The translations under genes and the position numbers were made by a program. The notes beneath the pieces are model-generated. The model made no database searches. It was given only the letters and a program-made list of their open reading frames with translations, and was not told where the DNA came from. From the NCBI GenBank assembly GCA_049303905.1, contig JBAQNP010000005.1, positions 61,655 through 125,654 of the forward strand: a stretch of DNA of 64,000 nt, read 5' to 3'. Source of the stretch: Candidatus Moraniibacteriota bacterium. GTDB taxonomy: Bacteria; Patescibacteriota; Minisyncoccia; Moranbacterales; UBA2206. Positions 2,207 to 57,838 of the stretch are shown piece after piece (within the stretch, counting starts at the first letter, position 1; every line of letters starts with the position of its first letter).

Positions 2207-4765
2207 ATGTATATCTTCAGCCCTAAAAATTCTACCGGATCATCCGGCAAAAAACGTTTTAAAATTAATTGGAAATTCCTACGAAAATCGGCTTTGATTT
2301 TTTTTGGCGCTATCTTGCTTTTTGTTATTGCGGTTTTCGCTTGGTTTGCCAAGGATCTTCCAAGCCCTGGGAATCTGAAGAATCGCGTCGTCATTCAATC
2401 AACTAAGATCTATGATCGCAGTGGAAATCATATTCTTTATGAAGTCCACGGAGAAGAAAAAAGAACGGAAATCCCCTTTTCCCAAATGCCGGAAAGTTTG
2501 CGTTATGCTACTATCGCCCTGGAAGATCAAAGTTTCTATAATCATATCGGTATTCAACCGAAAAGTATTTTGCGCGCTGCTCTAAAGGATGTTTTCAAGT
2601 TTGGCGCTTCTCAAGGTGGATCAACTATCACCCAGCAACTTATCAAGCAATCCCTCCTGACCTCAGAAAAAACTTTCACAAGAAAAATAAAAGAAGTTAT
2701 TCTGGCTATCGAACTAGAACAAAAATTTTCCAAAGACGAAATCTTAGCCATGTATCTTAACGAGATTCCTTATGGCTCTAATGCTTATGGCGTTGAAGCG
2801 GCCGCCCAAACTTTTTTTGGTAAACATGCCAGCGAACTAACACTGGATGAATCCGCTATCTTAGCTTCCCTACCTCAAGCGCCTTCTCGATATTCACCTT
2901 ATGGAACCCACACAGAAAACCTCAAGGCTCGTCAAGAGTATGCATTGAGTCAAATGGCTCGCTTAGGTTATATAACTCAAGATCAAGCCAATGAAGCAAA
3001 GGCAGTGGATATTTTTTCTAAGATAAAAACTTTTTCTGATAATATCAGTGCCCCACATTTCGTAATGTATATTAAAGAATCTTTAGAAAAAAAATATGGG
3101 GCTGAGGCGGTTGAACAAGGTGGACTAAAAGTTTATACCACCCTTGATTGGGATAAGCAAAAAATCGCTGAGGAAGCCATCAAAAACCACAGTGAAAAAA
3201 ATGCCACCACCTACAAGGCCAACAATCAGGCACTTGTGGCGATGGATCCAAAAACTGGTCAGATTTTAGCCATGGTAGGTTCAAAAGATTATTTTGGCAA
3301 AGCCGTTCCTGCCGGTTGCGTGTCTGGAAAAAATTGTAAGTTTGAAGGCAATTTCAATGTGGCTACTGCTCTTCGCCAACCCGGCTCATCCTTTAAGCCC
3401 TATGTCTATCTAACCGCATTTTCCAAAGGCTATACCCCAGAAACAAATCTTTGGGATGTAGACACTAATTTTTCTACTGATGATGGAAAAGAATATAATC
3501 CAAAAAATTATGACGGCGAAAATCGAGGTTTACTTAAGATGAAAGACGCGTTAGCAATGTCACTTAATGTTCCTGCAGTAAAAACACTTTATCTCGCTGG
3601 GGTGCAAGAATCCATAGATACAGCTCATAAAATGGGTATCACGACCCTAAAAAATCCTAAAGATTATGGTCTTTCTTTAGTTCTTGGTGGAGGTGAGGTA
3701 AAATTACTTGATCATGTTAATGCTTTTTCCACCTTTGCTACAGGCGGAATTCATCATTCCACTGTTTCTGTTTTAAAAGTTGAAAGCGGATCAGGTGAAA
3801 TTTTAGAAGAATATAAACCGAGCGACGGACAAAGAGTGATCGAAGAAAAACATGTCGCGATGATAGACTACGTTTTATCCACTAATGAACTTCGCGCTCC
3901 GGTATTTGGAGAAAACAATCCACTCAAATTTGAAAATCGTCCTGTGGCAGCTAAAACTGGCACTACCAATGAATGGCGCGATGGTTGGACTGTTGGGTAT
4001 ACTCCATCTTTAGTCGCGGGTGTTTGGGCAGGGAATAATGATAATTCCATAATGGCCGAAGGGGCGGATGGATCCTATGTTGCCGCACCAATCTGGCGTG
4101 AATTTATGGAAAAATCTTTAGTTAATTATGATATTGAAAAATTTCCGGAATACAAAAAAGATGAAGAAGAAACAGGAAAAGATGTGCTAGATGGAAAACT
4201 TGATGACAAAAAAGAAATCCGCGTCTGTAAGATTCCCGGCTCTGACGATTATTGTTTAGCTAATGATAATTGCCCAGAATCTGAAAGAGAGAAAAAGAAA
4301 TTCGCCGACGCGCATTCTATTTTATATTATGTAAAAAAAGATGATCCCCGTGGAGACAAACCAGAAAAACCCGAGGATGATCCGCAGTTTAAGGGTTGGG
4401 AAAAAGCCATTGAAAAATGGTTGGACAAAAAAGAAGGTTATTCTTCTCGACCAACTCCAGAAAAAGAATGTCGGTCAGATGATTTTAAGGATTTTGATCC
4501 AAGTATAAAAATATCAGCGCCTTCTAGTGTTAGCTCTTCTTCTTTTACTATAAAAGTAAAAGCAGATGCGCCATTTGGAGTGGATAAGATAACTTTGTCT
4601 ATTGAAGGCGAGGAAGTTAAATCATCCTCTGAATCCTCTTTTAGTTATGACTATTCAGTTCCTGATTCCAAGAAAAATACTACTCTTTCAATTAAGGCCA
4701 CTGTCAAAGATAAAAATGGCGACAGTGATTCCGATAACACATCCGTGAAAACAAATATTCCCTAA
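2207..4765 (+). CDS. Class A penicillin-binding protein (PBP1A: transglycosylase plus transpeptidase) with a C-terminal Ig-like extension
   Basis: N-terminal TM segment. GT51 motifs (EDQSFYNHIGI, GGSTITQQL). Transpeptidase motifs SSFKP (SxxK) and KTGTT. The Ser/Thr-rich C-terminus has Big-like repeats. Confidence 0.85.
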   Translation: MYIFSPKNSTGSSGKKRFKINWKFLRKSALIFFGAILLFVIAVFAWFAKDLPSPGNLKNRVVIQSTKIYDRSGNHILYEVHGEEKRTEIPFSQMPESLRYATIALEDQSFYNHIGIQPKSILRAALKDVFKFGASQGGSTITQQLIKQSLLTSEKTFTRKIKEVILAIELEQKFSKDEILAMYLNEIPYGSNAYGVEAAAQTFFGKHASELTLDESAILASLPQAPSRYSPYGTHTENLKARQEYALSQMARLGYITQDQANEAKAVDIFSKIKTFSDNISAPHFVMYIKESLEKKYGAEAVEQGGLKVYTTLDWDKQKIAEEAIKNHSEKNATTYKANNQALVAMDPKTGQILAMVGSKDYFGKAVPAGCVSGKNCKFEGNFNVATALRQPGSSFKPYVYLTAFSKGYTPETNLWDVDTNFSTDDGKEYNPKNYDGENRGLLKMKDALAMSLNVPAVKTLYLAGVQESIDTAHKMGITTLKNPKDYGLSLVLGGGEVKLLDHVNAFSTFATGGIHHSTVSVLKVESGSGEILEEYKPSDGQRVIEEKHVAMIDYVLSTNELRAPVFGENNPLKFENRPVAAKTGTTNEWRDGWTVGYTPSLVAGVWAGNNDNSIMAEGADGSYVAAPIWREFMEKSLVNYDIEKFPEYKKDEEETGKDVLDGKLDDKKEIRVCKIPGSDDYCLANDNCPESEREKKKFADAHSILYYVKKDDPRGDKPEKPEDDPQFKGWEKAIEKWLDKKEGYSSRPTPEKECRSDDFKDFDPSIKISAPSSVSSSSFTIKVKADAPFGVDKITLSIEGEEVKSSSESSFSYDYSVPDSKKNTTLSIKATVKDKNGDSDSDNTSVKTNIP

Positions 4766-46223: not shown

Positions 46224-48332
46224 TTATTCCTTATTCACATTCTTCATAGTGAGACTTATTTTTCCTTGATCGTCAATTGTTTTGACGCGTACGGGAACAA
46301 TTTGGCCAACTTTCAAGTAGTCTTCTACATTTTCTACGCGTTTATCGGCAATTTCACTGACGTGAATGAGACCATCTTGTCCTGGGAGAAGTTCGACGAA
46401 AGCGCCGAAAGCCATAATTTTGACTACCTTAGCTTGGAAGATTTCACCGGCTTTGACTTCTCGGGTGAGGTTATTAATCCATTCTTTCGCCTTTTCAGCA
46501 GACTGTTTGTCAACGGAAGTGATGAAAACTGAACCGTCGTCTTCAATGTCAATTTCTACTCCAGTTTCGTCAATTATTTCATTGATGACTTTGCCACCAG
46601 TACCGATGACATTTCTAATTTTGTCAGGATTGATATGCATAACGATAATGCGTGGAGCATATTGAGACATTTCAGGATTTGGAACAGCGATAGTGTCGGT
46701 AATTTTCTTGAGAATTTCCATTCTATTTTTTTGCGATTGGATAAGAACGGCTTCGAGCATTGGAATGGTCACTCCATCAAGTTTCACATCCATTTGCAAA
46801 GCGGTAATTCCTTCGCTTGTTCCAGCCGCTTTGAAGTCCATGTCGCCATAATGATCCTCGAGTCCTTGAATGTCCGTTAGAACTTTAAATTTTTGATTGT
46901 CCTTTTGATCAACGATAATTCCCATGGCAATTCCTGAAACAGGACGCTTAATCGGCACACCAGCATTCATAAGAGAAAGGGTGGATCCACAAGTAGAAGC
47001 CATTGAAGAAGAACCATTGGAAGAAAGTGTTTCACTCATAAGAAGAATTGTATATGGAAATTCTTCTTTGGAAGGCAAAACTGGCACGAGGGCTTTTTCT
47101 GCGAGTGCTCCATGGCCAATTTCTCGTCGCCCTGGACCGCGCATTGGTCGTACTTCTCCGACTGAGTATGGCGGGAAGTTGTAATAATGAATATATCTCT
47201 TTTTAGTGTCTACTTCCATCGTGTCGATTATTTGTTCCGCTCCCGGAGCACCAAGAGTTGTGACGGTGAGGGCTTGAGTTTCTCCGCGAGTGAAAAGCCC
47301 GGTACCATGAGTGCGTGGCAAAATTCCTACTTTGCATTCGATATGACGAATTTCTTCTAGTTTCCGTCCATCCGGTCGCATTTCTTTTTCTAGGATATTT
47401 TGATGTACAATTTCATCAGATACTTCTTCGGATACAATATCCGCTATTTCTTTGAGTTTCTCTGCTTCATCCGGATAGGTTTCCTTGATGAAAACAGAAA
47501 TTTTTTCACTAATTGCTTTGGTTTTCTCTTCAATAACCTTTTTGTCTTTATCATAAAGCGCTTCGGCTAGTCCTTCTGACAAAAGCATTTCCTTGATCTT
47601 ATTTTCAAATTCCTCTGTTCCTTTGACAAGCGCTGGCTCAGATTTTTCTTTTCCAATTTCTTTTTGAATTTGTCCAACAAATTCTGAGATTTTTCCAATG
47701 GCTTCATGAGCGAATTTAATTGCTTCGATCATTTCTGATTCTGGTACTTCCTTAGAAGCGCATTCAATCATATTGATTTTGTCTTGTGTTCCACTGACGA
47801 GAAGATCGAGTGATCCGTCAGTTAATTCTCCATTGACTGGGTTTAGGATTAGTTCTTCTCCAACTTTTCCTACGCGAACGGCGCTCACGGGTCCATTCCA
47901 AGGAATGTTGGAAATGGAAAGCGCGGCTGAGGCAGCGATAATAGCAACTACATCCGGATCGTTTTCGCCATCATATGATAAAACAGTACAAACTACTTGT
48001 ACATCATTTCTCATTCGAGAGTTGAAAAGTGGGCGAATAGTTCGGTCAACTGCGCGACCAGACAAAATTGCATCGTCGCTTGGTCGGCCTTCACGCTTGA
48101 TGAATCTCGAACCTTTAATTTTCCCAGCGGCATAATATCTTTCTTCAAAATCTACCATTAGTGGAAAATACCCACTCACTCTTGATGCAGATTTACTCAT
48201 GACAGCTGTAGCAAGCACCACTGTGTCGCCATAACGAGCCGTTACAGCGCCGTTGGCTTGACCGGCCAAAAGACCGGTTTCGATTTCCAAAATTCGTCCC
48301 CCAACTTGGAGGGACCATTTTTTTTGTTCCAT
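46224..48332 (-). CDS. pnp: Polyribonucleotide nucleotidyltransferase (PNPase)
   Basis: Two RNase PH domains, plus the KH and S1 domains (…GEIFQAKVVKIMAFGAFVEL…). 702 aa. Lies downstream of rpsO. Confidence 0.9.
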   Translation of the reverse strand: MEQKKWSLQVGGRILEIETGLLAGQANGAVTARYGDTVVLATAVMSKSASRVSGYFPLMVDFEERYYAAGKIKGSRFIKREGRPSDDAILSGRAVDRTIRPLFNSRMRNDVQVVCTVLSYDGENDPDVVAIIAASAALSISNIPWNGPVSAVRVGKVGEELILNPVNGELTDGSLDLLVSGTQDKINMIECASKEVPESEMIEAIKFAHEAIGKISEFVGQIQKEIGKEKSEPALVKGTEEFENKIKEMLLSEGLAEALYDKDKKVIEEKTKAISEKISVFIKETYPDEAEKLKEIADIVSEEVSDEIVHQNILEKEMRPDGRKLEEIRHIECKVGILPRTHGTGLFTRGETQALTVTTLGAPGAEQIIDTMEVDTKKRYIHYYNFPPYSVGEVRPMRGPGRREIGHGALAEKALVPVLPSKEEFPYTILLMSETLSSNGSSSMASTCGSTLSLMNAGVPIKRPVSGIAMGIIVDQKDNQKFKVLTDIQGLEDHYGDMDFKAAGTSEGITALQMDVKLDGVTIPMLEAVLIQSQKNRMEILKKITDTIAVPNPEMSQYAPRIIVMHINPDKIRNVIGTGGKVINEIIDETGVEIDIEDDGSVFITSVDKQSAEKAKEWINNLTREVKAGEIFQAKVVKIMAFGAFVELLPGQDGLIHVSEIADKRVENVEDYLKVGQIVPVRVKTIDDQGKISLTMKNVNKE

Positions 48333-48354
48333 AGATTGCGTAAATTCACGCGAA

Positions 48355-48395
48355 AGTCAAAAGTCAAAAGTCAAAAGTCAAAACTACAATTCAAA
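48355..48395. repeat. Heptamer tandem array (AAAGTCA)x4, decaying into related 7-mers, in the pnp leader region
   Basis: Read directly: aaagtcaaaagtcaaaagtcaaaagtcaaaactac…. Confidence 0.8.
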
Positions 48396-48594
48396 ACTTA
48401 AAAGTTAAATACTGAATTGTGGCTTTGAGTGGCTTTTCTTTAGCCTTGGGCGTGATTTTAAATTACTTAATTATTGTTAAAATTCTAGCTTATTTTAGGG
48501 GTTTTGTCAATTTTTTTAGGAAAAATAAAAAAACGGAGCATAATCCGTTTTTTGTATATTCGTATATTTGTAATAGATTAGTAATTCGTAAAGT

Positions 48595-49092
48595 TTAGAT
48601 CAAAAACTTCTTTTTATTCTCACTTAAGTTGATGAAAGCATCTAATTCTTCGACAAGTTTTCCGCTAGTGGACTCGCTAAAAGCAATGCCTTCGACGCGA
48701 CAGCCGGTAGTGGATTGAATATATTTGACAAGCGGAATATAGTCTCCATCACCTGAGACAAGCACAATTACATCCAAACTTTTGGACATTTTGATAGCAT
48801 CAATGGCAATTCCAACGTCCCAGTCGCCTTTTTTGGCACCACCGGGAAAAATTTGAAGATCCTTAGTTTTGACTTCATAGCCAACTTTTTCCAAAGCTTC
48901 AAAGAATTTTTCCTCTTGGCCTTCTAGGGTTTTGATTCCATAGGCAATAGCGCGGATGAGTTTTCGGTCCCCGACAGCTTCTTTTAGGATTTGTCCAAAG
49001 CTAACTTTCTTTTTATGCAAAACTTTGGCGCTATAATAGAGATTTTGAATGTCCACCAAGACACCCACTCTTTGCTCTTTGTATATGCTCAT
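48595..49092 (-). CDS. NYN-domain (LabA/DUF88-like) protein
   Basis: VGVLVDIQNLYYS…, IVLVSGDGDYIPLV. The PIN-like acidic residues are present. Confidence 0.6.
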   Translation of the reverse strand: MSIYKEQRVGVLVDIQNLYYSAKVLHKKKVSFGQILKEAVGDRKLIRAIAYGIKTLEGQEEKFFEALEKVGYEVKTKDLQIFPGGAKKGDWDVGIAIDAIKMSKSLDVIVLVSGDGDYIPLVKYIQSTTGCRVEGIAFSESTSGKLVEELDAFINLSENKKKFLI

Positions 49093-49106
49093 ATAGTATA
49101 AATTTC

Positions 49107-49240
49107 AGAAAAATAGTTTTTAGAGATTAGAAAATAGTTCAGGAAACTTGAAATTAGAAAATAGAATCAAAAAATATCCTTTTTCAATTTTCTTTTTTCT
49201 TGAGCTAACTTCCACTTTCCTTTTTACTTATTTCTTGTGG
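49107..49240. repeat. ~130-bp dispersed repeat, first copy
   Basis: …tagaaaatagttcaggaaacttgaaattagaaaatagaatc…ctaacttccactttcctttttacttatttctt. It aligns along its length with 58999-59130. Confidence 0.75.
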
Positions 49241-49241
49241 T

Positions 49242-49526
49242 CTATCCTTTTAAATCAAGCTTTTTAATCAAAGTTTTGTAGGCTTTTTCGTTGGTTTTTT
49301 GCAAGTATCCCATTAGTTTCTTTCTTTTAGAAACCATTTTCAAAAGTCCTCGGCGAGAATGAAAGTCCTTGGCATTCTTTTTGAGGTGAGTGGTGAGTTT
49401 TTTGATTTGTTCTGAGAAAAGGGCGATTTGGTATTCTGGAGAACCAGTATCCTTTTCGTGGCGAGCTACTTCCTTAGTTACTTTCTGCTTTTGTTTGGCG
49501 CTTAGAGCCATAGTTTTTTCGGCCAA
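49242..49526 (-). CDS. rpsO: 30S ribosomal protein S15
   Basis: …HEKDTGSPEYQIALFSEQIKKLTTHLKKNAKDFHSRRGLLKMVSKR… is the S15 consensus. The rpsO-pnp linkage supports the call. Confidence 0.9.
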   Translation of the reverse strand: MAEKTMALSAKQKQKVTKEVARHEKDTGSPEYQIALFSEQIKKLTTHLKKNAKDFHSRRGLLKMVSKRKKLMGYLQKTNEKAYKTLIKKLDLKG

Positions 49527-49656
49527 ACACTCGTTGCGAGAACTTCCCCCTCGAAAAACCAGTGTCGGCTAGTTAGAATTATTATATATCAATATTACAA
49601 TATAATTTAAGTTTTGGCAAATTTTTGGAATATTGAAATAAAAAAGAAGAAGGGCA

Positions 49657-49690
49657 TCTAAATTTTAGAAATTTAGATGCCCTTGTATGT
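49657..49690. terminator. Perfect 15-bp-stem hairpin terminator (AAGGGCATCTAAATTT…AAATTTAGATGCCCTT)
   Basis: Read directly. It separates the retron-RT transcription unit from the rpsO promoter region. Confidence 0.65.
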
Positions 49691-49715
49691 CTTCAGCCGT
49701 TTGGCTGGTTGTTTC

Positions 49716-50045
49716 CCCAGAAAGCTTAGAGGGTTGTCTCAACGACAAGGGGAGATTTGGGTCTTTCATTGCCGCGCTTTAATTTTAAATCCTCTCGAGT
49801 CGCCGATATCGGTAAAGATATGTGAAACACGCGAAGATACTCAAAAAAAACGTTCGCAAAGATCTTCAAGGGGAAGAAAAATGCTAGGCGATATGGGACA
49901 TTCCCTGACGAAACTTTCGGTTTCCGGAAATTCCCTCTACGCCATTTGAATGACGCAGATGTTTCTTACTGCTGGACTGAAAAAGGTATAAAATTTCATA
50001 CCTTCCCAATCAATCTCCCAATAAAGCCCTCTAAGCTTCTGATGT
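49716..50045. ncRNA. Candidate structured ncRNA bounded by a long-range inverted repeat, adjacent to the retron-type RT; possibly an msr/msd-like template RNA
   Basis: CAGAAAGCTTAGAGGG (49719-49735) is the reverse complement of CCCTCTAAGCTTCTG (50028-50042), with ~290 bp between. The segment is non-coding, GC-elevated, and has several local hairpins. Confidence 0.35.
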
Positions 50046-50066
50046 TTTAATCTTAGCAGAGTTTAT

Positions 50067-51161
50067 TTATTTGTGAAGTTTCCGCATTTCTCTAAATTTC
50101 AGGACAACTTCACTTTCTGATTTGTGACGGAAGGCATAAGGACTTCTTTTTCGCGTCACTGAGAAAAAAGCTCCCATCATACCTTGAATGATTTCAAAAG
50201 GTATGAGACCTTTTTCATAAAGATGTATTGCCCCATTAATTTTCCTGAGATAATTTCTGGGCAAAAAAGTTTCTCCTCTAAATTTCAATCCCACGCCGGT
50301 GATTATAATCTGGCGTTTCTCTGCCAAATCAATTACGGCTGATTTTTTGTGACTGATTTGCAGTCCGGCATCAATAATTACTTGGCGAATTTTTTTTCGC
50401 ACTCTTTTTCCGATTGGCTTCAAAGAAGAAAAAGCCAAATCATCAAGAAATCTGGTAAAACGAAGATCATTTTTTTCACAAATCTCCGCTAATGGCGCAT
50501 CTAATAAATACGCCGCAAAGATGTTTGCTAGATCTACTGAAGCTGGCGCGCCGGTTTTTAGTCCCGTGCCAGACTTCAAGAAGCAATATTTTTTCAAGAA
50601 TTTGGAGAGTTTTTTTCTATTTTCCCAAGTTGTCATACAGAGAATATCCAGTAGTCTATCTCCGTCAATGTTATTATAGAAGCTATGAATATCGAGGAGA
50701 TAAAAATATCTTCCGTTCTTATGCTTTTCTACATTTCTCAGTGGACTCCAGCCGGTGATTCCACCGGTGGCAAAACGAAGGCCAACTGGAAGCTCGTTTA
50801 TCAATTCTTTACTTCTCAGAACATTTCGAACAAATGCGCGATGAATTAAGCGCATAGTGAGGTTTGGATTGTGGATAGTCCGAAATTTACGGGTATTTTT
50901 TATTGGATTGAAATCTTCCAACTTATATACTCTGAATTTCGGAGACTGAAAAGTGAAAAAACAGAAATAAAAGTAGAAAATCCAAAAATTCAAACTTGCT
51001 TGAATTTCCTTGACTTCGAAATCCGGTTTTTTTCCGAAAAAAATCTGATATAAATTGTCAAATAACATAGGTCGCCCCCTTATTATTGAATGTTTTTTTA
51101 TTTGTTTTAGTTTAAAGCAGAATAGCAGAACAGGGCATAATTGGCAAGTTTTTGGCGACAA
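50067..51161 (-). CDS. Retron-type reverse transcriptase
   Basis: RT motif 1 RKFRTIHNP. Motif 2 TGGITGWSPLRNVEKH (the retron NAxxH). Motif 3 YFYLLDIHSFY. Motif 4 GLKTGAPASVDLANIF. Motif 5 FLDDLAFS (the YADD-equivalent). The retron VTG motif appears as IITGVG. The true start may be Met32. Confidence 0.7.
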   Translation of the reverse strand: MSPKTCQLCPVLLFCFKLKQIKKHSIIRGRPMLFDNLYQIFFGKKPDFEVKEIQASLNFWIFYFYFCFFTFQSPKFRVYKLEDFNPIKNTRKFRTIHNPNLTMRLIHRAFVRNVLRSKELINELPVGLRFATGGITGWSPLRNVEKHKNGRYFYLLDIHSFYNNIDGDRLLDILCMTTWENRKKLSKFLKKYCFLKSGTGLKTGAPASVDLANIFAAYLLDAPLAEICEKNDLRFTRFLDDLAFSSLKPIGKRVRKKIRQVIIDAGLQISHKKSAVIDLAEKRQIIITGVGLKFRGETFLPRNYLRKINGAIHLYEKGLIPFEIIQGMMGAFFSVTRKRSPYAFRHKSESEVVLKFREMRKLHK

Positions 51162-51190
51162 AGTTCCTAGTGTGGTAAGATGAGATTATT

Positions 51191-54100
51191 ATGCATGAAA
51201 TATTGGAAAAACTTAATGCTCCGCAAAGAGAGGCGGTGACGACGACGGAAGGGCCGGTTCTCATTATTGCGGGGGCAGGATCGGGGAAAACGCGCGCACT
51301 AACACACAGGGTGGCGTATTTGATTTGTGAAAAAAAGATTAGTCCTCGAAGAATTTTGGCGGTGACTTTTACTAATAAAGCGGCGGGAGAGATGAAGGAA
51401 AGGATTAGGGAATTACTTAGTGCAAATACGCGAATTGATGCGAATGATGCGAATGACCTCACCCCCAGCCCCTCTCCTTATAAAGGAGAGGGTAGCCAAT
51501 ATGATATGCCAACAGTCGGAACTTTTCATTCTATCTGCGTGAGGATTTTGCGTCATGAGATTGAGAAGATGGGATATAAAAGCTCTTTTAATATTTTTGA
51601 TGATCAAGATCAGCTGGCTCTCATGAAAAAAGTGATGAAAGAAATGGAAATTAACACCGATCAATTCAAACCAAAAGCAATTCTTGGCGCAATTTCCAAT
51701 GCGAAAAATGAACTCAAGAGTGCGGAGGAATTTTTAGCAGGAGTGGGTGGATATTTTGAAGAGATGGTGGCCAAGATTTATCTGAACTATCAAAAAAAAT
51801 TGAAAGATCAAGGTGCTTTGGATTTTGATGATATCTTGATGATTATAGTGAAGCTTTTCCAAAAGTTTCCAGAAGTTTTGGAAAAGTATCAGAATTTTTT
51901 TCAGTATATTATGGTAGACGAATATCAAGATACTAACCGCGCGCAATATTTGTTGGTAAAATTGTTGTCGGAAAAATATAAAAATTTGTGTGTGGTGGGT
52001 GATGATTGGCAATGTTTTCCGAGGGGAATAAAAATATCAGTGGATGACAAAAAAACCAAAAATATTGAGAAAATAAGAAAAGGAGATGCAATTATGTCAG
52101 CTTCAGGGCAAGGTGAGATTTGCCCTCAATCGATAGAAAGAAATAAAAAATCTAAATTCAAGGGAGAGCTAATAAAAATCACGACAAAATCAGGTAAAAG
52201 TTTAATGGCTACACCTAACCATATTCTTTTTTCTAAATTATCTTTAAGCGCAAATATATTCTATGTATATTTAATGTATAAAAAAGAGATAGGATATCGT
52301 ATTGGAATGGTAAAGGGAATTAGGATAGTTAAATCAAATGGACTTAATGCGGGATTAAATGTCAGGGCTAATCAAGAACGAGCAGACAGGATGTGGATTT
52401 TGAAAATTTGCCAGACAAAAACCCAAGCGCAATACTGGGAGCAATATCTTGGATTTTTTTATGGTATTCCGACGTTGGTTTTTATTGCGGGCAGTGGAAG
52501 AAAAATGAAATTTGAGCAAAAATATTTGGATGATTTGTATAAAAATATTAATACCTTAGAAAGAGTTAAGAAAATATTTTTAGATTTTAATTTAAATTTT
52601 GATTATCCTCATCATATTCCGCAATCAACCATAAGAAGTGGAATAAAAAGAGTTTCTGTTAACTTTACTTTATTTAGCGATCGCAGAAAAGGAATTTCAA
52701 TTAGCAATTGGGGAAGACACAGGATAAGCATTAATTCGAATGACAAAGAGACTAAAAAAATACTAGAGTTAGCTGGTTTCAAAACGAGAAAAGGAAAGAA
52801 GAATGATTGGCGATTGGAAATTTCTAGCAGAAAATATGAGGAAATGGAAAAGGTTCTAAATAAAATTATAAAAATTATTCCTAATATAGTGGTCACCAAA
52901 AGAGCGCTCTTAGCGGGAGGCAAAAGATTTTATTTTCAACCGGCGGGACATATCAGAGAAACAATGCTCGTGCCTATTTTAGAAAAAGGAAAAATTATTG
53001 AAGAGGAGATAGAAAAAGTTGAAAAAATAAAATATGCTGGTCCGGTTTATGATTTAGATGTAGCAAATGTGCATAATTATATTGCAAATAATTTTGTGGT
53101 GCATAATTCAATTTATGGATGGCGAGGAGCCAATATTCAAAATATTTTAGATTTTGAAAAAGATTATCCGCAGGCGCGCGTGATTAAGTTGGAGCAGAAT
53201 TATCGCTCGACGCAAAATATTTTAGACGCGGCTTATGGTGTGATTTCAAAAAACATTAATCGCAAGGACAAAAAAATTTGGACGGATAATCAAAGCGGGC
53301 ATCTTCTTTCTAGTTTTGAAGCAGAAGATGAAAAAGAAGAAGCACAGTTTATTGTGGATGAGATAAAAAAAATATGTCATCCTGAACTTGTTTCAAAATC
53401 TAATGAGGAGATTCCGGATCAAGTCCGGAATGACAAATACAGATTTTCCGATTTTGTAGTTCTCTATCGAACCAATGCGCAGTCTCGAATGATTGAAGAA
53501 GCGATGCTTCGAAATTCTATTCCGTACCGAATTATTGGCGGGGTAAAATTCTACCAAAGAAAAGAAATTAAAGATGTGATTGCATATCTGCGAGTGATTA
53601 ATAATTTTAATGATGAAACTTCGCTGGAACGAATTATTAATGAACCGAAGCGAGGGATAGGCGATGTAACACTGAGCAAGTGGATAAAAATAGCTCGATT
53701 AGATGAAAATAATTTAATAGATGCAGGGATTAAAATTAAACAGTTGCAAGATACAAAATACAAGATACAAGATACAAGACTGGATGCAATTGTGAAATTT
53801 TGCGAATTCATTCAGAGAATGTCAGAGCTCAAAGAAAAATTATCTCTTACTGATTTTATCCAAAAAATTTATAGTGAATCGGGGTATGAAAGATTTCTTA
53901 TGGACGGAACTGAAGAGGGAGAAATGAGAAATGAAAATGTTAGAGAGCTTCTCACTGTTGCAAAGAAATATGACGAGTATGAACCAATGGAAAGTTTGAA
54001 ATTATTTTTAGAAGAAGTAGCTTTGGTTTCTGACACGGATAATATTGATCAAGCTGTTGATGCGGTACATCTTATGACACTTCACAGTGCTAAAGGTTTA

Positions 54101-54577
54101 GAATTTAAAATTGTTTTTATTGCTGGGCTCGAAGAAGGGATTTTGCCACATTCCAGAAGTATGCTTAGCGACTCTGAAATGGAAGAAGAGAGACGCCTGA
54201 TGTATGTGGGAATCACGCGCGCTATGGAAAAAGTCTATTTGCTTTTTACTCGTATGCGAAATATTTTTGGTTCCACACAGATTAATGCTTCTTCAAGATT
54301 TTTGGAAGATGTGCCGGAGCATCTACTTGAGTCATATAACATGAAGCATGAAACATGTAACAAAAAACAAAGTGATAAGATTAGGCAAGGTTCGGAAAAA
54401 AATGCTTCATGCTTCATGCTTCATGCTTCATGTTTTAAGGACGGTGATCGGGTGCGACATGAGGTTTTTGGTGATGGCTTGATTGTTGCGAGTCAAGGCG
54501 ACATAATCACCGTCGCCTTTTCCAAGGCGGGACTCAAAAAACTTTCTACTTCAATCGCACACTTAGAAAAAATATAA
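51191..54577 (+). CDS. pcrA: ATP-dependent DNA helicase PcrA/UvrD, interrupted by an intein and carrying an in-frame palindromic insertion
   Basis: Walker A AGAGSGKTR. Motifs Ia, II (DEYQD) and IV-VI are present. Motif III reads VVGDDWQ|intein|SIYGWRGA. The N-terminal insert TPSPSPYKGEG is encoded by the palindromic element. Confidence 0.85.
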   Translation: MHEILEKLNAPQREAVTTTEGPVLIIAGAGSGKTRALTHRVAYLICEKKISPRRILAVTFTNKAAGEMKERIRELLSANTRIDANDANDLTPSPSPYKGEGSQYDMPTVGTFHSICVRILRHEIEKMGYKSSFNIFDDQDQLALMKKVMKEMEINTDQFKPKAILGAISNAKNELKSAEEFLAGVGGYFEEMVAKIYLNYQKKLKDQGALDFDDILMIIVKLFQKFPEVLEKYQNFFQYIMVDEYQDTNRAQYLLVKLLSEKYKNLCVVGDDWQCFPRGIKISVDDKKTKNIEKIRKGDAIMSASGQGEICPQSIERNKKSKFKGELIKITTKSGKSLMATPNHILFSKLSLSANIFYVYLMYKKEIGYRIGMVKGIRIVKSNGLNAGLNVRANQERADRMWILKICQTKTQAQYWEQYLGFFYGIPTLVFIAGSGRKMKFEQKYLDDLYKNINTLERVKKIFLDFNLNFDYPHHIPQSTIRSGIKRVSVNFTLFSDRRKGISISNWGRHRISINSNDKETKKILELAGFKTRKGKKNDWRLEISSRKYEEMEKVLNKIIKIIPNIVVTKRALLAGGKRFYFQPAGHIRETMLVPILEKGKIIEEEIEKVEKIKYAGPVYDLDVANVHNYIANNFVVHNSIYGWRGANIQNILDFEKDYPQARVIKLEQNYRSTQNILDAAYGVISKNINRKDKKIWTDNQSGHLLSSFEAEDEKEEAQFIVDEIKKICHPELVSKSNEEIPDQVRNDKYRFSDFVVLYRTNAQSRMIEEAMLRNSIPYRIIGGVKFYQRKEIKDVIAYLRVINNFNDETSLERIINEPKRGIGDVTLSKWIKIARLDENNLIDAGIKIKQLQDTKYKIQDTRLDAIVKFCEFIQRMSELKEKLSLTDFIQKIYSESGYERFLMDGTEEGEMRNENVRELLTVAKKYDEYEPMESLKLFLEEVALVSDTDNIDQAVDAVHLMTLHSAKGLEFKIVFIAGLEEGILPHSRSMLSDSEMEEERRLMYVGITRAMEKVYLLFTRMRNIFGSTQINASSRFLEDVPEHLLESYNMKHETCNKKQSDKIRQGSEKNASCFMLHASCFKDGDRVRHEVFGDGLIVASQGDIITVAFSKAGLKKLSTSIAHLEKI
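52013..53107 (+). mobile_element. Intein (365 aa) inside pcrA motif III, with a central endonuclease-like region
   Basis: Starts at Cys1 (CFPRG…). Block B TPNH. C-terminal blocks VYDLDVANVHNYIANNFVVHN followed by +1 Ser. Excision restores the canonical GDDxQSIYGWRGA. Confidence 0.8.
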
Positions 54578-57052: not shown

Positions 57053-57126
57053 GGGTGTTTAGCTCAGCTGGTTAGAGCGTCACATTGACATTGTGGAGGT
57101 CACTGGTTCGAGTCCAGTAATACCCA
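57053..57126 (+). tRNA. tRNA-Val (anticodon GAC)
   Basis: Manual cloverleaf fold. Acceptor GGGTGTT/AATACCC (one G·U pair). D arm GCTC/GAGC. Anticodon arm TCACA-TTGACAT-TGTGG. T arm ACTGG-TTCGAGT-CCAGT. Confidence 0.7.
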
Positions 57127-57214
57127 CAGCATAAGAAATATGATAGAGTTAAAGAGTCGAGAAAGTACATTTAAAAAGATAATGGGACCATAGCTCAGTG
57201 GTAGAGCGCGCGGC

Positions 57215-57589: not shown

Positions 57590-57838
57590 AATCTAATTAT
57601 AACACAAAATGAATAATTGCAACAGGGCTGTTTGAGAAGTAATTTTCAAATGAATTCTGTCAAATTCGGGGAAATCTTAAGTTTTTATTTTATATAAAAA
57701 AATGACAATCCCGAGCCAAGTCCCGACGCTAAGTCGGGAAAGGTGTAGAGACTAGATGGCAGACATCCCGAGTATTTGGGATGAAGGGATAGTCCAGCTT
57801 ACAAATTCGAAAGAAGTTGCGAAAGCAATAGTGAGATG
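57216..57838 (+). mobile_element. Group I intron (IC3-like, tRNA-intron type) with an antisense HNH ORF
   Basis: The core matches cyanobacterial-type tRNA introns: CAATCCCGAGCCAAGTCC, GGGAAAGGTGTAGAGACTAGATGGCAG, and the P7 pair AGACUA/UAGUCC. It ends in omega-G at 57838. Confidence 0.65.

Follow-up and report, generated by a model that had tools for sequence, protein, structure and literature searches.

The closest described relatives of the locus considered here are the retrons (Retron-Eco1/Ec86, Ec83), in which a reverse transcriptase (RT) gene adjoins, in the same orientation, the gene of an RNA without coding function (ncRNA), which is closed by the a1 and a2 arms and carries conserved hairpins of small size and, after them, a long variable one. 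The ncRNA gene of retrons usually lies immediately 5' of the RT gene, the two being transcribed together, and most of the characterised retrons have an effector. The msr part comprises 1-3 short hairpins and the msd part a long stem-loop, while a G at the 3' end of a1, opposite a G that precedes a2, serves as the branch point of the 2'-5' branched msDNA. DRT2 comprises a UG2 RT and an upstream ncRNA, and its rolling-circle reverse transcription yields the neo gene; it also combines an RT with a structured ncRNA, possesses no protein effector and has short repeats flanking a possible template. Stand-alone (msr-msd)-RT cassettes have been noted in the RT clades 2 and 11 (PMC7736814), while the RT and the ncRNA of retrons were found to work with their order artificially inverted, RT-DNA being made for many retrons (PMC10849725). 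Candidate type XI-like retron lineages, which are WYL-associated and for which a1/a2-flanked msr/msd-like RNAs were predicted computationally, also include new retron-like RTs, and the available part of the preprint makes no mention of CPR/Patescibacteria or of a 3' ncRNA gene (bioRxiv 10.64898/2026.05.14.725207). In the literature that we searched, we met with no report of retrons in connection with CPR lineages, nor with one of an ncRNA encoded naturally on the 3' side.

The locus lies in a 64-kb stretch of DNA (hereafter, the window), for which a preliminary description had proposed an msr/msd-type RNA encoded 3' of a retron RT. This proposal is supported on every point that can be tested with sequences, namely the RT motifs, the conservation, the match to a covariance model of the RNA (R1, see below) and the a1/a2 arms. 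The window provides a 3'-RNA example of a previously undescribed retron-like family of CPR bacteria, characterised by an ncRNA signature of its own, the absence of a conserved effector and a variable position of the RNA gene.

The ORF of the RT spans 50067-51161 (-), with the stop codon at 50067-50069; the ATG at 51068 (codon 32) is its likely start, which gives a CDS at 50067..51068 (-) and a protein of 333 aa, to which an NCBI entry from a Candidatus Moraniibacteriota MAG is 100% identical. The protein is matched by Pfam RVT_1 and by PADLOC retron RT models (~1e-30) and contains the motifs NVxxH, (Y/F)LDD and ITG. The top 25 PADLOC matches are all retron RT models, with E-values from 1e-30 to 1e-17, and none stands out, the models of types II-A, III-A and VI giving similar values of ~1e-30 each. 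Member-level matches to any retron type (I-XIII) or NCBIfam retron family were not found, as the RT scores below every curated cutoff (for NCBIfam retron_St85_RT, 110.7 bits at a cutoff of 235); the score of the Drt2 model is 31.6 bits at a cutoff of 390. When the profile of the RT family was compared with PDB, retron RTs came first (Ec83, Ec86, Ec78, Ec67, and Eco8, at 1e-28 to 1e-11; the first three at 1e-28 to 1e-20), followed by weaker matches to a group II intron RT (1e-7), Drt3a (4e-7), and Drt2 (5e-6). Thus, the RT is most similar to those of retrons, whereas its similarity to the RT of DRT2 is weak (5e-6 vs 1e-28) and the RNA architecture differs from that of DRT2 as well.

Retron RTs are recognised by the motifs NAXXH in region X and VTG in region Y (PMC7736814), and the same positions are occupied in the family under consideration by NVxxH and ITG, with V replacing A and I replacing V. 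In the alignment of 17 sequences, N112 and H116 of the N-V-x-x-H motif are invariant and V113 nearly so (NVEKH in the window RT), and G258 of the I(T/N)G(V/I) motif is nearly invariant (IITGVGL in the window RT). The catalytic box of the window RT is FLDD (RFLDD, residues 206-210 of the 333 aa), while YLDD or YVDD occupies this place in the nearest relatives and elsewhere in the family, a difference that we counted against the retron reading. No extra Pfam domain was found in the ~300-aa RT. The RTs of the window clade (P0001-P0003) carry an N-terminal extension of ~30 aa within residues 1-40 (window 50949-51068 (-)), absent from other members of the family; it includes an aromatic, hydrophobic run, NFWIFYFYFCFFTF, and could be a membrane segment.

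An exhaustive HMMER search with the RT retrieved 166 cluster representatives (50% identity) at E <= 1e-30, mostly of ~300 aa and, with few exceptions, from Patescibacteria/CPR. Among the GTDB species genomes, a scan gave 329 loci, the best 40 of which belong almost exclusively to Patescibacteria/CPR MAGs (Saccharibacteria, Parcubacteria, Berkelbacteria, and others) and encode RTs with 33-46% identity. In this near-restriction to Patescibacteria/CPR MAGs the family differs from retrons. No close relatives of the RT are present in IMG/VR, where the RTs are merely 22-28% identical, and a phage origin of the gene was therefore rejected.

The RNA element starts 25 nt beyond the stop codon of the RT and does not reach the promoter region of rpsO, so that the order on the RT-sense strand is RT, element, terminator. 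The preliminary description placed it at 49716-50045 and bounded it by an inverted repeat of 16-17 bp. The repeat itself is real (plus-strand arms CAGAAAGCTTAGAGGG at 49718-49733 and CCCTCTAAGCTTCTG at 50027-50041) and shorter than claimed, comprising 15 bp, of which 12 form a perfect helix and 3 follow a bulge of 1 nt. The 12-mer, with up to one mismatch allowed, occurs in the 64 kb at just these two sites, with 0.25 matches expected by chance. As to the boundaries, the core enclosed by a1 and a2 is slightly narrower than was proposed, while the likely transcript would be longer, from ~50043 down to 49640. The ~290 nt between the arms had been described as non-coding and relatively GC-rich, and the GC content is indeed 42%, compared with 35% in the window. 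The possibility that this is a degraded coding sequence was not borne out: there is no Pfam match, the indels are mostly not multiples of 3, and the variable columns show no codon periodicity. In the folding check, the RT-sense strand gave z = -4.5 (0/100 shuffles as good) and the opposite strand z = -2.4. Rfam contains nothing relevant to positions 48000-52000 at E <= 10.

Read in the RT sense (all the features below are on the minus strand), the element is preceded by a promoter-like site, TTCACA-16-TGcTAAGAT (50050..50077), overlapping the last RT codons. This is a consensus match only, such sites being found 7 times vs 4.6 expected; its extended -10 pattern, TGnTAnnnT, is kept in the three closest relatives, L001-L003. 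Judging from its position, it would start transcription at ~50043, just 5' of the a1 arm. The a1 arm, CAGAAGCUUAGAGGG (50027..50041), is the 5' arm of the closing stem and is followed by X1, GGGAGAUU (50012..50019), which, as the 5' strand, forms another long-range helix with the motif X'. Between X1 and the first of the two hairpins typical of the family lies a hairpin specific to the window clade (49975..50011), which stretches the distance from a1 to hairpin A from ~40 nt to 65-70 nt. Hairpin A (49937..49958), with the loop UCAA, and hairpin B (49895..49935), which starts with AGGGAAUU and has an apical insertion of 19 nt, constitute the family signature; both show covariation and fall within the match to the model R1 at 49891-49961. 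Downstream of them are the pyrimidine tract CAUUUUUCUUCCCCUU (49868..49883) and a long imperfect hairpin of ~100 nt (49762..49862), predicted by folding, which corresponds to an msd-like variable domain. Then follow the internal motif X', AAUCUCCCC (49749..49757), a small hairpin, UUGUCGUUGAGACAA, just 5' of a2 (49734..49748), with U, C or G at a loop position among the relatives, and the a2 arm, CCCUCUAAGCUUUCUG (49718..49733), which is the 3' arm of the closing stem. The local hairpins pointed out previously all find their place in this scheme: CCGATATCGG and GAAACTTTCGGTTTC are the tips of the long hairpin and of hairpin B, respectively, and GGTATAAAATTTCATACC is the clade-specific hairpin.

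The a2 arm is abutted by X2, GGGGA (49714..49718), which corresponds to the CGCUGA motif of the family, and then by the hairpin CCAGCC-AAAC-GGCUGA (49693..49708), which appears to carry the CAGC:GCUG core of the X':X2 helix of the family. The terminator claimed for 49657-49690, 3' of the element, was also recovered: the hairpin occupies 49650-49684, and the T-run is on the minus strand only, so this terminator ends the RT-sense transcript. In full, the intrinsic terminator (49636..49684) consists of a 16-bp stem followed by CUUCUUCUUUUUUAUUU, and it is conserved in L002.

Preservation of the element in homologous loci was checked first of all in the contigs L001, L002, and L003, whose RTs are 82-84% identical to the window RT at the protein level. 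All three keep the downstream element, with 86-89% nucleotide identity (local blastn), compared with ~80% for the RT CDS. The C->U substitution in the a2 arm of L002 and L003 retains a G:U pair in the RT-sense RNA and would create a C:A mismatch on the other strand. The three sequences of the window clade contain one compensatory pair, their variation being too small for a covariation analysis. A metagenome scan with P0004 for intermediate relatives with an intact downstream flank yielded one distant locus only. Direct comparison of the element with distant RT loci (blastn, nhmmer) revealed nothing significant, and in 20 related loci the Rfam gathering score was reached by tRNAs only; the RNA of the family is recognisable only by its structure and short motifs.

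These were found by scanning 700 nt on either side of the RT in 45 RT loci for long-range stems. Many of these loci possess arms of 12-16 bp, 200-290 nt apart, that end 20-60 nt before the RT start, and in others equivalent arms occur just after the RT stop. The common layout, which emerged when these elements were folded, includes the a1 arm, ~40 nt, hairpin A (9 bp, loop YCAWG), hairpin B (beginning with AGGG), a pyrimidine tract (UUUUUCUUC-like), one or more variable long hairpins, the sequence CYUCAGCG, 20-35 nt, and the a2 arm. The pyrimidine tract was read by eye: of the 28 family elements listed, most have one after hairpin B, and its conservation is an addition to what is seen in retrons. 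Hairpins A and B are conserved among the relatives, while the long hairpin is variable, and the names msr-like (for the former) and msd-like (for the latter) were assigned by position only.

To obtain the covariance model R1, we used 18 hairpin A+B segments from loci with 33-46% RT identity, the window clade being left out, and compensatory changes were observed at 14/14 modelled pairs of this seed alignment. In the 64-kb window R1 has one significant match, 49891-49961 (-), with 34.4 bits and E = 8.3e-6 (the next has E = 0.13), i.e., within the element. In 88 loci (509 kb), 39/42 matches are RT-sense and adjoin the RT; those outside the seed come from L005, L015, L011, L020, L022, L056, and the relatives of the window. 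Paired cells make up 90.7% in the alignment of the 42 matches, vs 66% after shuffling and 44-61% with the partners slid, and the covariation score is 0.80 vs 0.33 (0/500 shuffles as high), although fitting of this alignment to the R1 model favours the structure somewhat. The covariation in related genomes that had been proposed as a check is thus present in hairpins A and B across distant RT loci. Besides, an enclosing stem of 11-18 bp surrounds 30/34 model matches, its 5' arm ending ~31-46 nt before hairpin A (Mann-Whitney p = 3e-16 in comparison with 400 random control sites of the same loci). The element of the window is homologous to the RNAs adjoining distant RTs.

A further feature of the family, not known in retrons and counted by us against the retron reading, is that the motif X' (CCUCAGCG) has two covarying partners. 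It pairs either with X1 (CUGAGG, 5' of hairpin A) or with X2 (CGCUGA, starting 0-3 nt after a2), and X1 and X2 have CUGA in common. Compensatory variants of the X':X2 helix are found in L025 (CAACGAUC / GAUCGUUG and, in its second RNA copy, UCAACGACC / GGUCGUUGA) and L056 (UUCCGUACAGU / GCUGUACGGGA), as well as in L041, L035, and L023. Cognate X':X2 pairs are better than non-cognate ones (permutation p ~2e-4), and the same holds true for the pairing of the 5' region with the 3' region (p ~4e-4). The window keeps this topology with different sequences, X' forming 8 bp with X1 and 5 bp with X2. Since the X':X2 helix would hold a2 in its loop, it competes with the a1:a2 closing stem; this suggests either two alternative folds or a role of X1 and X2 as staggered repeats.

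The 3' position of the candidate RNA had been singled out as unusual, and it is indeed the less frequent arrangement. Counting R1 matches at E <= 0.1, we found the RNA upstream of the RT in ~19 loci and downstream of it in seven (L017, L018, L021, L023, L024, L025, and L027) and in the window clade. L019 has the RNA on both sides of the RT (2718-2935 and 4035-4274), and the gene that follows its second copy is presumably FtsK-like, judging by the look of its sequence, and not a second RT. Tandem copies are located upstream of the RT in L011, L015, and L020, and downstream of it in L025 (3980-4178 and 4275-4581); in L030 (2623-2927), one a1/a2-bounded element contains the hairpin A+B module twice. 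A rough neighbour-joining tree shows the downstream state at four places or more, and the window clade is the sister of the downstream-type pair L017/L018. The ~120 nt upstream of the window RT contain no R1 match. Neither does the 143-nt gap upstream of the RT in L004 (RT 53-60% identical), a contig that ends inside the RT, and this is consistent with a downstream RNA there. Thus, unlike retrons, where the ncRNA gene is usually 5' of the RT, the window and several other lineages of the family have it on the 3' side. The same order exists in the engineered promoter-RBS-RT-ncRNA operons (PMC10849725), but there it is artificial, while the present family has it in nature, with recurrence in several lineages and conservation among close relatives. 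As inverted retron operons work, the gene order should be mechanistically neutral.

As for a possible effector, none is conserved in the family, in contrast to most characterised retrons: within 3 kb of the RT in 43 loci there is no ORF cluster that recurs beyond local synteny. According to Pfam, the genes around the RT of the window look like ordinary housekeeping genes, including rpsO (49242-49526) and a PNPase gene. The gene of an NYN-domain (LabA-like) nuclease, identified with Pfam and PADLOC at 48595-49092 (-), is separated from the RT by rpsO; an NYN gene is present at <=2 kb from the RT in 3/43 family loci (the window, L014, and L050), which is too rare to call it an effector.

It is highly probable that the element is the cognate RNA of the adjacent RT. 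We also consider it fairly probable, although with less confidence, that it is a structured ncRNA which serves a retron-like RT as a template of the retron style and is encoded 3' and not 5' of it. The RT is retron-like, the RNA has the retron layout, and the two are inseparable while the other neighbours vary, which argues for a template and recognition RNA. We have moderate confidence that the element works as a classical msDNA template. Transcription would proceed in the RT sense, the RNA either belonging to the RT mRNA as its 3' part or arising from a start at the promoter-like site over the last RT codons, and would end at the terminator 49636-49684. The a1/a2 arms, extended by the X1:X' helix, would close the RNA. 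By analogy with retrons, hairpins A and B presumably act as an msr-like recognition module that the RT would bind, and the long variable hairpin is presumably an msd-like template copied into a small single-stranded cDNA, the synthesis of which would be primed probably by a 2'-OH near the closing stem.

Some of the observations described above would also fit a partner RNA of the RT whose templated synthesis is of a non-msDNA type, the cDNA itself, and not a protein effector, carrying the function; this could involve X1 and X2 as staggered direct repeats that allow template jumping with the formation of repetitive cDNA, as in DRT2, or slippage on the U/C tract, as in DRT9. We regard this explanation as unlikely. 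It is favoured by the composition of the cassette (RT and ncRNA only, with no conserved neighbour gene, as in DRT2), by the two covarying partners of X', both containing CUGA, and by the pyrimidine tract after hairpin B. The branching-G, or 'two opposing G', signature was sought at the inner a1/a2 ends and is not seen either, as the family stems have no consistent G:G pair, so that a branching G cannot be assigned, which we also counted against the retron reading, as we did the lack of a conserved effector and the RT scores below the curated cutoffs; G-rich a1 ends are common in the family, but they are not diagnostic. On the other hand, the RT is far closer to the RTs of retrons than to Drt2 or Drt3a, and the a1/a2 arms together with the short hairpins and the long hairpin represent the layout of a retron RNA. 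A neo-like concatemer ORF is unsupported, since there is no consistent stop-free frame in the elements, and this DRT2-like candidate was rejected because the stop-free runs do not exceed those in shuffled sequences. We hold to be distinctly improbable the more specific idea that the CPR cassettes are RT-ncRNA systems lacking an effector, with an RNA that alternates between folds (X':X1 with a1:a2 vs X':X2) and with repetitive or concatemeric cDNA, made via X1/X2 or the U/C tract, as the functional product.

The location of the element, which has the RT stop codon on one side and the terminator on the other, as well as the resemblance of the alternative X':X1 and X':X2 pairings to a regulatory switch, could be explained by a cis-acting element in the 3' UTR of the RT mRNA, which affects stability or attenuation or binds the RT for autoregulation and is not reverse transcribed. 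However, most relatives have this RNA upstream of the RT, and L019 has it on either side, so its role is independent of being a 3' UTR; moreover, its layout matches retron template RNAs, and the free evolution of the long hairpin contrasts with the conservation of hairpins A and B, all of which makes the 3'-UTR explanation very improbable. That the element has nothing to do with the RT, being a mobile element of the miniature inverted-repeat kind, a piece of a decayed gene or an inverted repeat arisen by chance, is hardly credible in spite of the terminal inverted repeats around ~300 bp, considering that the element is single-copy within the 64-kb window, that 39/42 of the R1 matches adjoin an RT homologue in the RT sense across 88 loci, that its stems covary and that the pattern of indels, the codon periodicity and Pfam give no coding signal; a coding remnant, a MITE and a DGR template/variable repeat were rejected on the grounds of the copy number and the lack of this signal.

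The template RNA gene of natural retron-type cassettes can therefore be located on either side of the RT, and pipelines that inspect only the upstream side will miss ncRNAs. The family defined here is large (166 clusters) and retron-like; its RTs are compact (~300 aa), its RNA can be recognised by a signature, and an effector gene is absent, so that one may ask what an RT and an RNA do on their own in such small genomes. If active, its members would add new compact RT/ncRNA pairs to those used for making DNA with retrons. Should the reading with switching folds and repetitive cDNA be true, bacteria with minimal genomes would possess in this family a counterpart of DRT2/DRT9 derived from retrons.

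Several minor observations concern the surroundings of the RT genes. An ORF of 96-97 aa, which we take to be acylphosphatase-like by the look of its sequence, is found 3' of the RNA in three related loci only (L021, 2475-2765; L023, 1964-2254; L024, 5073-5366) and was taken as local synteny and not as a component of the system. In the window, a group I catalytic intron (Rfam RF00028, 81.7 bits) is located at 57605-57819 (+), ~480 nt after tRNA-Val (57053-57127), in a stretch that has no rRNA or tRNA match. The gene divergent from the RT (51191-54577 (+)) encodes, according to Pfam, a PcrA/UvrD-type helicase with an intein: the Intein_splicing and Hint domains occupy residues ~273-640, between the two helicase halves.
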